Assembly (NCBI GenBank): GCA_963719085.1
Contig: CAVRAL010000001.1
Coordinates: 800,001-864,000, forward strand
Origin: a candidate division FCPU426 bacterium
GTDB lineage: Bacteria > Oederibacteriota > Muellerivitia > Muellerivitales > Muellerivitaceae
Direction: 5' to 3'
Length of the DNA: 64,000 bases
The notes beneath the pieces are model-generated. The model was not told the DNA's origin and searched no databases. It saw only the letters and a list, made by a program, of their open reading frames with translations. Both the position numbers and the translations under genes were made by a program. Positions 45,066-62,582 of the stretch are shown one piece after another (position 1 is the first letter of the stretch; the number at the start of each line of letters is the position of its first letter).

Positions 45066-46100
45066 TTATTGCCCGTTGGCCGCCAAGGCGGCCAACGGAT
45101 TTTTACCCCACTTCACGATCCACCATTCCAAAAGGGTGGATAAGCCGGTCTTCCCAATCCGTCCCACGACTAACCCCGCTTGAATCCGGATTAAATCATT
45201 CATCGCCGCTTTAAGTTCCTCGCTGGAATATTGGCCGGCCTGTTCCCACAAACTTTTAACCCGGAAAGGGTGCAGTCCCAGCCGCTGGGCCATGTCCCCT
45301 TGGCTCAACCCTTCCGCCTTCCCCGCCGCCAGGCCCAAAAGGTCCCGCATCCTTTGATACATCATGAACACGATCCCGTTTTCGGATCCGGGCGCCATTT
45401 CGTGGAAGGACTGGATGGCTTTTTCGGTCCGGCGAAAGCCGACGGCGTCCAAAAAGGGAAAAATCTCGGCTTCGGTCCCGGGAATGGGAAGATCCAAAAT
45501 ATCCCGGAGCGTGGGTTTCTTCGCGGGCAGGATAAAAACGGATAAATGCTCCAAGGCCCGGCTTAAGTAGGCCATGTCGGTTCCCGTTTTTTGGATCAGC
45601 GCCTGGCAGGCTTCCTCGTTGATTTCAAGGCCCATCTCCTTGGCTTGCTGGCGGACCCAGGGGACCAATTTCCAATCCGGAATATCGGAGCATTGGACTG
45701 CCCAGCCTTTTTTCTCGAGATAGGCGACAATTTTGGAAGTTTTACGCAATCCGTTGGCCGTGAAAACCAGGGTGGAGTCCGGGCTGGGATTCTCGAAATA
45801 ATCGCTTAAACGGCTCAGCGCGGAGTCGGACCGGCCGCCCAAGGCTTTTTCCGCGTTGCGCAGGACCAACAGCTGTTGATTGGCGAACAAGGACGCCGTT
45901 TGCGCGCTGGACAAAAGCTCCGCGAACTGGGCTTCCCCGCTCTCAAAAACATTCACGGTGCCCTGCGGGAATTTGGACTTAAAGGCTTTTTTGAGATGGT
46001 TGTACCCTTCCGAAACCACGCCTTCGGAATCCCCGTAAAAAAGAACGGCCGCAGGCCAAACGCCTTTGGCGAGTTTTTGAATGTACTCATCGAAGTACAT
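45066..46100 (-). CDS. holA: DNA polymerase III subunit delta
   Basis: LFYGD, SLFA and LHPFR motifs; leuS-lptE-holA synteny. Confidence 0.88.
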   Translation of the reverse strand: MYFDEYIQKLAKGVWPAAVLFYGDSEGVVSEGYNHLKKAFKSKFPQGTVNVFESGEAQFAELLSSAQTASLFANQQLLVLRNAEKALGGRSDSALSRLSDYFENPSPDSTLVFTANGLRKTSKIVAYLEKKGWAVQCSDIPDWKLVPWVRQQAKEMGLEINEEACQALIQKTGTDMAYLSRALEHLSVFILPAKKPTLRDILDLPIPGTEAEIFPFLDAVGFRRTEKAIQSFHEMAPGSENGIVFMMYQRMRDLLGLAAGKAEGLSQGDMAQRLGLHPFRVKSLWEQAGQYSSEELKAAMNDLIRIQAGLVVGRIGKTGLSTLLEWWIVKWGKNPLAALAANGQ

Positions 46101-46123: not shown

Positions 46124-46972
46124 TTAAGGAATATTTCGCGGGATGGGCTGGCTTGAAACCGGCGTACTCATGGGAAAAGCGCCCGGGATCGACATCGCTC
46201 CCGCGGACTGCGCGGCGGCGGCCGCGGCGGGCGACAGGGTGGCGATCGGGGAGGGGGGCTGCAGGGGCTGGTCCTTCACGTAAAAAAAGGTGATTCCCAC
46301 CAACTGTCCGTCCACGCTGGTCCTAAAAGAATAAAGCCCCGTGTCTTTCGGCAGGCCGGTTTGGCCAAATTCGCTGTGCAAATGATCCATCCCCAGGGTC
46401 AGGGTGGTTAAAAACCATTGATAGGTTTCATCCTGGATCGTGAGCAGCCGATCCACGAAGCTGACCCGGTACTCCTGGTCGTATTTGGCGATTTGAATTC
46501 CCGAGGGATTAAAGCACTCCACCGTAACCGTATGGATGCGGCTCGCGGGCTTGATGAGGAAATAAAGATAAAAACAGACCTGGTCGTTTTTATTCAAATA
46601 AAAATAGTTGACGCTGTCGTTGGGATAATCGTTCACGATTTTGGTGCAGGTGATCATGTGGCTGATGATGATGCCTTGATCGCCGGAGGCGCCGGAAACC
46701 GGCGCGGCGGCCGGGGCGTCCTTGACCGTGGTATTCACGCCCGAGTCCAGGGTGTTTTTAGGCACGCTGCCGGTGATCCATTGCAAGTCGGCATGGGCCG
46801 TCGATACTAGTCCCGACAGGATGAAGAAAAACAACCCCAATCCCGTCTTAAAACCGGTTTTACCGCCAAGGCGCCAAGGCGCCAAGGAAGACCCTAAATC
46901 TTTTTTGGGTTTTAATATTAAAAGCATTCCTTGGCGTCTTGGCGTCTTGGCGGTGAAAATTTGATTTTTCAT
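46124..46972 (-). CDS. Secreted hypothetical protein (Ig-like domain) with a palindromic insert in its signal peptide
   Basis: ATG 46972 lies 4 nt after the lptE stop with GGAAGGG upstream; h-region GLGLFFFILSGLV and AHA cleavage site. Confidence 0.65.
   Translation of the reverse strand: MKNQIFTAKTPRRQGMLLILKPKKDLGSSLAPWRLGGKTGFKTGLGLFFFILSGLVSTAHADLQWITGSVPKNTLDSGVNTTVKDAPAAAPVSGASGDQGIIISHMITCTKIVNDYPNDSVNYFYLNKNDQVCFYLYFLIKPASRIHTVTVECFNPSGIQIAKYDQEYRVSFVDRLLTIQDETYQWFLTTLTLGMDHLHSEFGQTGLPKDTGLYSFRTSVDGQLVGITFFYVKDQPLQPPSPIATLSPAAAAAAQSAGAMSIPGAFPMSTPVSSQPIPRNIP
46858..46959. repeat. CGCCAAG-type palindromic element, copy A (inside CDS)
   Basis: ACCGCCAAGGCGCCAAGGCGCCAAGGAA ... TTCCTTGGCGTCTTGGCGTCTTGGCGGT. 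Confidence 0.9.
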
Positions 46973-46976
46973 TTTA

Positions 46977-47642
46977 TTAATTCCCTTCCAAAACGCGCCG
47001 GACCAGGGTCCGGCATAATTCTTCGGCCATTTGGGCCTGGGCCTGCGGGTCCGTTTGCGTGATCGCCCCCACATATTGGGACGTGTAGTAAAAGTAGCTG
47101 TGGATCTTATCCTTGTCTTCCACCAGGGTCCGTTTTTGTTTTTGGTCGATCGCGTCCAAGTCATAGGTGATCGTGATCCGGTATTGAAGCACCAAATTAG
47201 TCTTCGGATCGAACAACATGGGAATCTCATCGAACTTTTTAATGTCGAGATTGACCACCAAATCCGCGCCGGCCGGATTCGAGATGGGGATCCGGCCGTC
47301 CACTTGAAAAGCTTGGATCAATTGACTTGTCATGAGGGTATCCAGGCCGTATTCGCTTGTCTCATTTTGCACCGGAGAGACCCCCACGGATTGGATGTAA
47401 GACGGCACGATCATAACCGCGGGCGCGCATCCACCCAGGCCAAAGATGGTTAGGGCTAGGGTCAGGACAAGCGTTGGTTTCAAGAAAAATGAAAAAATAA
47501 AATTTTTACCGCCGGGACGCCAAGGCGCCAAGGACGGCATATGTTTTTTGGGATTTATCATCATCTCATTCCAATGATTTTCTTGGCGTCTTAGCGTCTT
47601 GGCGGTGAAATGATTTTTTAAGCGGCTTTTTGTCTTTCGCAT
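46977..47642 (-). CDS. lptE: LPS assembly lipoprotein LptE-like
   Basis: Lipobox LGGC; NETSEYGL and ADLV...I pattern; lies between leuS and holA. Confidence 0.75.
   Translation of the reverse strand: MRKTKSRLKNHFTAKTLRRQENHWNEMMINPKKHMPSLAPWRPGGKNFIFSFFLKPTLVLTLALTIFGLGGCAPAVMIVPSYIQSVGVSPVQNETSEYGLDTLMTSQLIQAFQVDGRIPISNPAGADLVVNLDIKKFDEIPMLFDPKTNLVLQYRITITYDLDAIDQKQKRTLVEDKDKIHSYFYYTSQYVGAITQTDPQAQAQMAEELCRTLVRRVLEGN
47504..47610. repeat. CGCCAAG-type palindromic element, copy B (inside CDS)
   Basis: ACCGCCGGGACGCCAAGGCGCCAAG ... CTTGGCGTCTTAGCGTCTTGGCGGT. Confidence 0.9.
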
Positions 47643-47643
47643 T

Positions 47644-50124
47644 TCAACCCACGATGAAGTTGGCCAATTTATCCTTGACCCAAATCATTTTTTTAATTTT
47701 CGCTTCTTCCACAAACTGCCCCACCTTGGCGTCTTTCAAAATCTCAAGCCGGGCCGCCGTCTCACCCAATCCCACGGCCAGTTCCAGCCGGGCCTTGAGC
47801 TTGCCGTTGACCTGGATCGCGATTTCGACCCGATCCGCCGTCAACCACTGGGAATCAAACTGGGGCCAGCCGGAGTCCATCAGACTCTTGGCATGACCCA
47901 GGCGGTTCCACATTTCTTCCGCGATGTGGGGTGTAAAGGGCCCCAGCAAACGGATCAAGGCTTCCAAGGCTTCCCGGATCAAAGGCGTCTTGGCTTCCGG
48001 GCTTTCCTTGTAGATATAGAGCAAATTGACCAGCTCCATCATAGCGCTGATGGCCGTATTAAACTTAAATCCCCCGGTCATATCCTGGGAAACTTTTTGG
48101 ATGGTTTGGTGGGTTTTACGGCGGATTTCCTTGTCCGCTTCCGAAAGCCCTTCGGCGGAGGGGGCGGCCGCTGAGGTTTTGTAGTCCCCTCTTTCCAAAA
48201 GCTCCGTGAACAGGCGCCAGACCCGGCTCAAAAACCGGAAAGAACCGTCCACGGCCCGGTCATCCCACTCGGCGTCCCGCTCGGGGGGGCCGATGAACAA
48301 CGTGTAAAGCCGGAAGGTATCCGATCCGTATTTTTCAATCAGCTCATCGGGTTGAACCGAGTTGCCTTTGCTTTTGGACATCTTGACCCCGCCCTTGGTG
48401 ATCATGCCCTGGGTGAAAAGCTTTTTGAAGGGTTCGTCGAAGTTAATGATGCCGATATCTTTCAGGACCTTGGTGATGAAGCGGGAATAAAGCAGGTGCA
48501 GGATCGCGTGCTCCACGCCGCCGATGTACTGATCCACCGGCAGCCACTCATTGGCGGTCTTGGAATCAAAGGCCTCTTTGTCGTTGTGGGCCGAGATGTA
48601 GCGTAAAAAATACCAACTGGAATCCACGAAGGTGTCCATGGTGTCGGTTTCCCGTTTCGCCGGTCCCGCGCATTGGGGGCAAGCCACATTGACGAAACTG
48701 GGGACGCTTTTCAGGGGCGATTCCCCGGTGGGTTTAAACTCGACGTCGCGGGGCAGGCGCACCGGCAGGTCTTTTTCGGGCACCGGAACCCAGCCGCATT
48801 TTTCGCAGTGGATCATCGGAATCGGCGCGCCCCAATAGCGTTGGCGGGAAATGAGCCAGTCCCGGAGGCGGTAATTGATCGAGCCTTTTCCGCAGGATTT
48901 TTCCTCGAGCCACTCAATCATCCGCGCTTTGGACTTTTCGACATTGAGGCCGTTTAAAAAATCCGAGCCCATCAACAAACCGTCCTCAGTGTGGGCTTCC
49001 TTCAAGTCGGCGCTTTTGTCGCCGTTGGGCCCCTCGATGACCCGGACGACGGGAATTTTATATTTTTGGGCGAAGGCGAAGTCCCGGGTGTCGTGGGCCG
49101 GCACGGCCATGATGGCGCCGGTCCCGTAATTCATGAGCACGTAATTGGCGATATAGATGGGAATTAATTTTCCGTTGACCGGATTGACGGCTTGGCGGCC
49201 CGTATCAACTCCCAGTTTATCCCCCGTCTCCCCAATGCGCTCCAAGGAGCTGAGTTTGCGCGCGTTAGCGGCGAAGGCCTTGATCTCTTTTTCCGTGGGA
49301 CTTCCGGCGGCCAGGCGTTCCACCAAAGGATGCTCGGGGGCCAGCACCATGTAAGTGGCGCCAAAAAGGGTGTCGGGCCGGGTGGTGAAAACCGTGACCT
49401 TGGCGTCCATCCCCTCGACTTTAAAATCAACCTCGGCGCCCTGGCTTCGGCCGATCCAGTTGCGCTGCATGGTCTTCACGCGGTCGGGCCAATGGTCCAA
49501 ACGGTCCAAATCGCTCAACAAGCGGTCGCCATATTCGGTGATTTTAAAGAACCATTGTTCCAGGTCCTTTTGTTCCACGAGGGAGTCACAGCGCTCGCAC
49601 CGGCCGTCGATGACCTGCTCATTGGCCAAAACGGTCATGTCGGTGGGGCACCAATTCACGTTGGCTTTTTTGCGGTAGGCCAGCCCCCGCTCGTAAAGTT
49701 TGAGGAAAATCCATTGGGTCCAGCGGTAATAGTCGGGCAGGCAGGAAACCACTTCTTTGTCCCAATCATAGCCCATGCCCCAATCGTAAAATTGGCCCTT
49801 CATGCGTTCGATGTTTTTCAGCGTCCAATCTTCCGGATGGATCCCCTTTTTGATGGCGGTGTTCTCGGCGGGCAGTCCAAAAGCGTCAAAGCCCATGGGA
49901 TTCAGGACATTGTGGCCTTGGGACCGGAAGTAGCGGAAAACCGCGTCGCCGATGATGTAGTTGCGGCCGTGGCCGGCGTGAAGAAAATCCCCCGAAGGAT
50001 AAGGAAACATGACCAGGGTGTAATATTTATCGGCGGGTTTGCTCAGGTCACAATAAAAACTATTCTGGTCTTTCCAGAATTTTTTCCAGCGCTGTTCAAT
50101 CTCCGCGAAATTGTAGGCTTCCAT
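47644..50124 (-). CDS. leuS: Leucine--tRNA ligase
   Basis: [29 protein letters not shown] and KMSKS. Confidence 0.98.
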
Positions 50125-59351: not shown

Positions 59352-59466
59352 CTTTTTCACCGCCAAGACGCCAAGTAAGACAAAAACCAATTGGGTTTTA
59401 AATCAATTTTGAGTTCTTTTTAAATCCGTTCTTGGCGAACTTGGCGTCTTGGCGGTGAAAAGGTTT
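59352..59466. repeat. CGCCAAG-type palindromic element, copy C (intergenic)
   Basis: TTTTCACCGCCAAGACGCCAAG ... CTTGGCGAACTTGGCGTCTTGGCGGTGAAAA. Confidence 0.9.
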
Positions 59467-62480: not shown

Positions 62481-62582
62481 TTTTCACCGCCAAGACGCCA
62501 AGCTCGCCAAGAAAATCAAGAATTATGGTTTTTCAAAATTCTTAAATCTTCCCTTGGTGCCCTTGGCGTCTTGGCGGTAAAA
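62481..62582. repeat. CGCCAAG-type palindromic element, copy D (intergenic)
   Basis: TTTTCACCGCCAAGACGCCAAGCTCGCCAAG ... CTTGGTGCCCTTGGCGTCTTGGCGGTAAAA. Confidence 0.9.

Follow-up and report, generated by a model that had tools for sequence, protein, structure and literature searches.

Can a dispersed palindromic repeat settle in the coding part of a gene and be carried there as a piece of an export leader that is cut off again? This question is raised by a stretch of 64,000 nucleotides (nt) from a candidate division FCPU426 bacterium (GenBank assembly GCA_963719085.1, contig CAVRAL010000001.1, positions 800,001 to 864,000), here called the window. On its minus strand lie, in this order, leuS, lptE, gene X and holA, where gene X stands for a conserved open reading frame (ORF) for a secreted protein between lptE and holA. 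Two copies of one palindromic repeat, copy B in lptE and copy A in gene X, follow directly on the start codons of these two genes. A preliminary description of the locus took both to be translated in frame within signal peptides. It named the operon leuS-lptE-holA, which has to be amended to leuS-lptE-gene X-holA, the second of the two genes not being holA. The observation itself, that two in-frame palindromic copies are present in signal-peptide coding DNA, is confirmed; the interpretation that was first given to it is, as a whole, partly supported.

Two elements in former signal-peptide DNA

The sequence, the ORF list and a repeat finder agree on the two palindromic cores as they had been described. 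Both are multiples of three and, on the minus strand, stop-free; they share one register, which is the frame of the downstream gene, and are translated as FTAKTPRRQ...SLAPWRLGGK in copy A and FTAKTLRRQ...SLAPWRPGGK in copy B. The tight coupling of the two start codons to the upstream stops likewise holds. Each copy is situated ahead of a hydrophobic (h-) region, which ends in LGGC in LptE and in AHA, followed by D, in gene X. As read from the translations, the leaders have the layout ...KPTLVLTLALTIFGLGGC in LptE and ...KTGLGLFFFILSGLVSTAHA in gene X, with cleavage of the latter before D, and the orthologues are built alike. A basic amino-terminal (n-) region, an uncharged hydrophobic core and a lipobox or A-x-A site are present in both leaders; both are flagged by a crude hydrophobicity rule, the layout being otherwise judged by eye.

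The origin of this arrangement becomes apparent from relatives in which the sites are empty. Both copies are missing from the closest relative found, the metagenome contig L037, and from a genome of the same genus, G001. The former shares 81% protein identity in LptE and 85% in gene X with the present genome, and 254 of 300 nt at the 3' end of leuS. In these two relatives lptE and gene X start 1-5 nt past the upstream stop, and the leaders are ordinary ones of 17-26 residues. The leuS-lptE junction reads TAA-a-ATG AAA AAA... in L037 (MKKLFLILIAAGIFAGGC) and TGA-gc-ATG in G001 (leader MKRLFSLLALAALGAGC), and the lptE-gene X junction reads TAA-gc-ATG (MTRKKVWLAVSLFIFSCAGALSSAHA, then DLQW) and TGA-cgcc-ATG (MTRNPKALGAGLLLLALTGGISPVQA, then DLQW), respectively. 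When the site of copy B is aligned with L037 using MAFFT (GGGTTGAAATG versus GGGTTAAAATG), one clean gap, 162 columns wide, opens immediately behind the lptE ATG, and the 221 codons of lptE compare with 167 amino acids in L037. Both leaders are longer than those of L037, by 54 codons in LptE and by 35 codons in gene X, in frame and without a stop.

Since L037 and G001 leave no intergenic room, and since the matching ATGs are kept in the present genome, both elements are located within what was formerly signal-peptide coding DNA. With no spacer in the ancestral operon, both insertions fell between a start codon and a hydrophobic core. By this comparison of aligned sequences, the two elements are shown to lie between the ancestral start codon and the h-region of the signal peptide; they are not ordinary intergenic copies, as the preliminary description had already held. 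The edges are less sharply drawn. For copy A the insertion boundaries are ambiguous, both MKTGLGL... and MKNQIFKTGLGL... being possible as the ancestral gene X leader. At the edges of the copy B block a TG or TTGAAA is repeated, which could be due to chance and which stems from the single clean empty-site alignment. A claim to a precise insertion point or a target-site duplication was dropped on these grounds: the consensus of the element ends fades, and a clean empty-site alignment exists for copy B only.

The features of the locus are collected in Table 1. The LptE ORF passes the gathering score of PF04390 (42.5 bits against a cut-off of 23), and an LptE orthologue is present in 39 of the 41 genomes searched. 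Gene X has no Pfam or NCBIfam match in profile searches. It adjoins lptE, between lptE and holA, in 22 of 24 genomes of the family, and its mature N-terminus carries a motif, DL(E/Q)WITGG(V/I)PK, that is conserved in the orthologues, whose leaders of 21-27 residues end in A-x-A before DL(E/Q)W.

Table 1. Features of the leuS-lptE-gene X-holA locus and further copies of the repeat, in window coordinates
Feature	Position	Strand	Basis or remark
leuS (leucyl-tRNA synthetase)	47644..50124	-	ORF list; Pfam tRNA-synt_1_2, E = 4.3e-69, plus anticodon-binding domain
leuS stop TGA	47646-47644	-	sequence
lptE ORF, 221 codons from the ancestral ATG	46977..47642	-	Pfam LptE PF04390, E = 1.2e-10, residues 84-217
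lptE start ATG	47640..47642	-	1 nt past the leuS stop; same place as the lptE start of L037
Block with copy B and A/T-rich flanks, missing in L037	47481..47639	-	159-162 nt, or 53-54 codons
Copy B, palindromic core, 99 nt	47508..47606		repeat finder; pairing reaches about 47492-47625
In-frame TTG after copy B	47481..47483	-	alternative start, gives MKPTLVLTLALTIFGLGGC
LptE lipobox LGGC, Cys codon	47429-47427	-	end of hydrophobic core
lptE stop TAA	46979-46977	-	sequence
Shine-Dalgarno-like GGAAGGGA	46982..46989	-	inside the 3' end of lptE, 9 nt before ATG 46972
Gene X, 282 codons from ATG	46124..46972	-	predicted cleavage between AHA and D at 46798-46787
Gene X start ATG	46970..46972	-	4 nt past the lptE stop; matches the start position in relatives
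Copy A, palindromic core, 93 nt	46862..46954		repeat finder and end consensus; about 46850-46969 with outer AAAACC/GGTTTT-type boxes
holA (DNA polymerase III delta subunit), last of the gene string	45066..46100	-	NCBIfam TIGR01128, E = 8.2e-64
Further copy, stop-interrupted, between genes	59354..59461		pattern search
Further copy, stop-interrupted, between genes	62482..62582		pattern search

Proposed translation as export leaders

The reading that we favour, with a probability of roughly 0.6, is that copies A and B are translated from the old ATGs as a part of the n-region of cleaved signal peptides, the mature proteins being unchanged. Ribosomes that end on the upstream gene would restart at the adjacent old ATG in a termination-coupled manner, and would unwind the hairpins and translate through them. 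The resulting precursors would carry signal peptides of 72 residues in LptE and 61 residues in gene X, with lengthened n-regions that are strongly basic (about +10 and +9, by our own count). The h-region and the cleavage site would be left untouched, and signal peptidase II in the case of LptE (between LGG and C) and signal peptidase I in the case of gene X (between AHA and D) would remove the insert and release mature proteins identical to those made before. Insertions at this spot would persist only in genes with a disposable N-terminus and be lost from cytoplasmic proteins, and such a loss would explain why in-frame copies are found ahead of exported proteins. In lptE, the TTG after copy B may serve beside the ATG or instead of it.

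The start signals differ between the two genes. The 16S rRNA tail of this genome reads CACCTCCTT, and a Shine-Dalgarno (SD)-like motif occurs at 342 of 513 confident starts, compared with 77 of 513 control sites. Gene X is likely read through from ATG 46972, judging from the SD-like GGAAGGGA that precedes it and from the lack of a good start after copy A. On the 3' side of this copy only TTG codons remain (46840-46838 and 46834-46832), giving a leader, MGLFFFILSGLVSTAHA, that has no basic residue, and the ATG and TTG within the element are buried in the stem. For lptE, ATG 47642 and TTG 47483 are about equally likely as the start, and both may be in use. No SD-like motif was seen by eye in the 25 nt upstream of this TTG; it is preceded by a U-rich, unstructured stretch. 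The possibility of downstream starts, raised in the preliminary description, is a serious alternative for lptE, where the TTG would give a normal lipoprotein leader, and a less likely one for gene X.

Copies A and B belong to a family with at least 77 paired copies, 63-168 nt long, in this genome (G000; 3.04 Mb in 5 contigs). The arms consist of two or three tandem 8-mers (CGCCAAGA and variants) around a variable A/T-rich loop, with outer AAAACC/GGTTTT boxes. A consensus drawn from 147 element ends reads AAAACCnnTTTCACCGCCAAGACGCCAAG(TTCGCCAAGAA), then the A/T-rich loop and then the mirror image; it weakens past the AAAACC box, and there are sub-variants built of CACCAAGG, CGCAAAGA or CACGAAG units. 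The arm word CCAAGACGCCAAG, with at most one mismatch, occurs 11 times in the window, where shuffled sequence gives an expectation of 0.11. According to our own codon-usage log-odds gene call (2458 genes, 85.5% coding), 61 of the 77 copies lie between co-directional genes, 7 between convergent and 2 between divergent ones, and 7 overlap a called coding core; a copy is typically separated from the upstream stop by 6-45 nt. In three copies outside the window (C1:328048-328223, C1:365885-366057 and C4:405684-405867), a GC-rich cassette of about 75 nt is inserted at the identical point of the arm.

Genome-wide, 61 pairs can be formed of an element and a downstream gene that faces it. In five of these pairs the frame is open all the way from the upstream start codon, and a signal-peptide-like downstream protein is found in all 5 of them, compared with 9 of the 56 others and 735 of the 2458 genes overall (hypergeometric probability about 3e-4, by our own arithmetic). 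If the elements were untranslated, the type of the downstream protein should not matter; yet all five open copies precede export leaders. Two of the five are lipoproteins, LptE among them, and the other three are Sec-type secreted proteins. In four of the five, the hydrophobic core to which the rule responds is not part of the element, and in at least four the start codon abuts or overlaps the upstream stop.

A similar tendency is seen at the orthologous junctions of relatives. Four junctions were followed (leuS-lptE, lptE-gene X, a lipoprotein at G000:C1:342785 and a secreted protein at G000:C4:975548), with 10-15 orthologous loci for each from the same bacterial family; at every locus, the stretch between the upstream stop and the point where the protein match begins was measured and checked for an open frame. 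Among stretches of at least 90 nt, 15 of 19 are open in the frame of the gene and 5 of 38 in the other two frames; among those of at least 150 nt the figures are 11 of 12 and 2 of 24, or 8 of 9 and 2 of 18 without the rows of this genome, with the proviso that the protein-match anchor lies inside or just past the leader, so that about 60-75 nt of each stretch are ordinary leader coding. All four closed stretches of at least 90 nt occur at the lptE-gene X junction and represent a true spacer with its own start. This pattern fits selection for an open frame, that is, translation, and in-frame retention within signal-peptide DNA would apparently be both recurrent in the family and selected.

Several observations weigh against translation of the two copies as signal-peptide parts. 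The hairpins, of -42 to -54 kcal/mol, begin 6-25 nt from the ATGs and could hinder initiation. The protein alignment places residue 1 of the L037 LptE exactly at TTG 47483-47481, which gives a canonical 19-residue lipoprotein leader (MKPTLVLTLALTIFGLGGC), and a lipoprotein signal peptide of 72 residues would be unusually long. Genome-wide, elements are stop-free in the frame of the gene in 14 of 61 cases and in the other frames in 27 of 122, which is no enrichment, and the 5 fully open copies among 61 are roughly what chance would be expected to yield. The claim that the repeat exploits signal peptides, and the genome-wide count proposed along with it, came out divided: the association with exported proteins is there, the preference for the frame is not. 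The signal-peptide calls behind this association come from our own crude hydrophobicity rule, which is not a trained predictor and also flags N-terminal membrane helices. When five relatives were scanned with a strict pattern as a replicate, 35 elements came up and, among 38 pairs, one fully open case, which the script did not flag as signal-peptide-like; this sample is too small to test the export link. By eye, the single case (WRLGVLAVLWSFPFLGLA, then Q) looks like an export leader in which the right arm forms the core. Finally, three of the four junction sets were picked because the copy of this genome is open, the relatives are mutually dependent, and within the family copies A and B are most closely related to each other, so that the features they share count roughly as one event.

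Other explanations and the wider family

Of the other explanations, one is compatible with translated leaders and places the main role of the elements at the level of RNA: the hairpins would stabilise, process or partly terminate the leuS-lptE-X-holA mRNA and thereby set an expression ratio, translation being incidental. The distribution of the family accords with such a role, as the copies are located after the stops of co-directional genes and avoid divergent promoter regions, and so do the very strong folds, which range from -42 to -67 kcal/mol (copy A: -54.2 kcal/mol in mRNA sense and -67.4 in antisense; copy B: -42.4 and -58.9). Against shuffled sequences, the mRNA-sense folds of the two hairpins have z = -7.8 and -5.4. 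In the family as a whole, the hairpin on the mRNA strand is usually the stronger one, by more than 2 kcal/mol in 37 of 61 pairs and weaker in 14, but A and B run opposite to this bias. With mRNA-sense folds that are weaker by 13-15 kcal/mol, they exceed all others among the 61 pairs in this respect; where the arms pair, A.C mismatches in the mRNA correspond to G.U wobbles on the other strand. This weakness could reflect a relaxed or reversed constraint on translated copies, although, A and B being mutually closest, it is essentially one observation. The hairpins may also tune expression of the operon. Moreover, the operon does without both copies in its two closest relatives. Neither element was called on the minus strand by a terminator scan, which admits loops of 3-8 nt only and so excludes both by design. 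Taken together, a principal role in the RNA seems rather unlikely.

It is also conceivable that both genes now start downstream, lptE at TTG 47483-47481 and gene X at TTG 46885-46883 in the right arm, 46840-46838 or 46834-46832. The elements would then be untranslated hairpins between cistrons, and the open frames back to the ATGs leftovers or chance. For lptE, the leader that results equals that of L037 in position and length, the unstructured U-rich stretch stands in front of it, and starts that lack an SD-like motif do exist in this genome (171 of 513). Besides, 56 of the 61 copies do lie ahead of a downstream start, the number of fully open copies is close to the rough chance estimate, and the codon-usage model lets the coding signal begin after both elements, at 46858 and 47474. 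Gene X fits poorly, however, as the element-free starts after copy A give the leader without a basic residue and those inside the element sit in a stem. For an unconstrained insert, the chance of being both a whole number of codons long and stop-free is, by our own estimate, about 0.07 (one third for the length times a stop-free rate of 22%). Chance also leaves unexplained why every one of the open copies precedes an exported protein and why nearly all of the long junction stretches in relatives (11 of 12) are open in the frame of the gene. Downstream starts in both genes are unlikely.

That the copies are assembly artefacts, repeats misplaced in assembly or binning, has practically no probability left: repeat families often cause misjoins in metagenome assemblies, but Logan contigs from public soil runs, which may include the source sample of the genome and are thus not fully independent, span both copies and their flanks (47000-47738 and 46848-47008) with 0 differences, copy B being flanked by 480 and 130 nt and copy A on both sides, and no element-free variant is among these contigs.

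As to the proposed translated leaders, many relatives carry palindromic or tandem-octamer inserts of their own at the same spots, with units such as CACCAAG, CACGAAG, CGCGGAG and GTGNGAAA. Parts of these elements appear to supply the SD site (the CCAAGGA arm end), the start codon (in the loop or in the end variant AAAACATG) and the basic n-region, and a right arm read as LGVLGVLAV appears to supply the hydrophobic core.

The individual cases are diverse. In L007 and L019 (both G019) and in L029 (G024), the region between stop and start is occupied, for lptE and gene X alike, by the tandem octamer GTGNGAAA, whose translation is a Lys/Val-rich n-region (MKVRMK..., VKVKKWEGK...). In L005 (G004), L003 (G009), L091 (G005) and L093 (G006), the start codon is situated within the loop of the element; CCAAGGA or GAAGGAAGG, with which the left arm ends on its inner side, occupies the Shine-Dalgarno position, and the hydrophobic core of the leader is read from the right arm. 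The LptE orthologue of L010 (G006) seems to be without the lipobox Cys; in it, a repeat arm translated as LLGALGALVV continues without a break into the mature VPSY motif. The gene X orthologues L018, L021, L024, L025, L026, L027 and L030 have n-regions made of A-rich tandem words of 7-8 nt (TTCAAAAT-like), whose translation gives K-I/F-K-I/N repeats, a pattern to which MKNQI in this genome conforms. In L081:1986-2126 (G000:C1:342785-342925) and L088 (G003), the end variant AAAACATGTTTCACC puts an ATG directly past the upstream stop (TAAACATG...), and the leader of one and the same lipoprotein has, in two genera, this TAAACATG followed by an element of differing unit type.

It could be imagined, tentatively and with somewhat more doubt than belief, that palindromes with octamer arms target the nucleotides immediately following stop codons and are kept as translated parts of signal peptides wherever the next gene abuts. 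Signal peptides would in that event be the main safe harbour for insertions into coding regions and the insertions a steady source of new export leaders, while the hairpin may tie the translation of envelope proteins to the ribosomes that arrive from the upstream gene. If this family-wide pattern were true, repeats would be raw material for new signal peptides.

Even in the narrower form, translation of the two copies would have consequences. An essential envelope gene, lptE, can bear a hairpin of 160 nt behind its start codon. Gene callers will mis-set starts at such junctions, and programs that predict signal peptides will be faced with leaders 60-70 residues in length whose n-regions are long and basic. 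The locus may also serve as a natural test bed for how much additional n-region is tolerated by Sec and Lsp processing.

Comparison with known systems

There are several classes of small repeats with which the family can be compared, and each of them shares some of its features. In Geobacter metallireducens, passages of a published study describe paired sites of 3-5 tandem units of 7-8 nt, with the same units on the opposite strand at a variable distance and tens of copies, and interpret them as sites at which global regulators bind (Aklujkar et al. 2009, PMC2700814). The paired tandem-octamer architecture is common to both. In contrast, the units given in these passages (GTTGCTYN, TCTCCGTS and MTYCTGA) are different ones, and no link to translation or to signal peptides is made in them.

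The REP/BIME/REPIN elements resemble the family as high-copy imperfect palindromes that follow the stops of co-directional or convergent genes, are rare in divergent regions and form transcribed hairpins. However, the units are about 80-160 nt long here and 20-40 nt there, and the consensus TTTCACC...GGTGAAA contains no GTAG or CGTC end tag. REP-type elements are mobilised by RAYT transposases (PMC3733652). The corresponding Y1 transposase domain (PF01797) gave 0 matches in this genome, which is 99.08% complete, where a control search was positive in 6 of 14 named genomes. Membership in this class was rejected, as two defining traits, the RAYT gene and the GTAG/CGTC tag, are lacking. A search of Rfam returned only sub-threshold matches to eukaryotic miRNA hairpin families (the best at 45.4 bits against a gathering score of 88), which are taken to be generic hits to long hairpins.

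MITEs and intragenic ERIC/BOX elements are described, in passages of a review, as non-autonomous, with inverted ends and sometimes located in ORFs to which they add peptides (PMC10969869). As far as these passages go, the inverted ends, the whole element being palindromic here, and the occasional location in an ORF with an added peptide are shared features. The short repeat at the edges of copy B, TG or TTGAAA, is in this respect a possible target-site duplication only.

The closest functional likeness is that to the Rickettsia palindromic elements (RPEs), which are said to go back to Ogata et al. in 2000. Passages of a review portray them as small dispersed palindromes, about 100-150 bp in length, whose insertion into protein genes keeps the frame and brings in no stop, the host protein gaining a peptide and staying functional; signal peptides are absent from the passages on such elements (PMC10969869). 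A literature search found no paper that joins Rickettsia palindromic elements and signal peptides, and another, on REP elements and in-frame signal-peptide or N-terminal extensions, found nothing relevant, neither of which proves that the idea is new or unpublished. Judged by these passages, the family has in common with the RPEs the small dispersed palindrome and its stop-free, in-frame insertion in a protein gene; here, the palindrome has many copies, the empty orthologues place copies within genes, and the inserts comprise whole codons with no stop. There are differences as well. The host is a soil bacterium, the arms consist of tandem 8-mers around a variable loop, most copies are extragenic, and the in-frame copies are all in cleaved signal peptides, the mature domain remaining unaltered. 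The family is not filed as a member of the RPEs, the likeness being probably a functional one. The two copies would be a new example of a known route by which junk DNA survives inside genes. What they would add to the RPE idea is an insert that is confined to a disposable export leader, so that selfish repeats may enter coding DNA at the least cost where that part of the protein is cut off.

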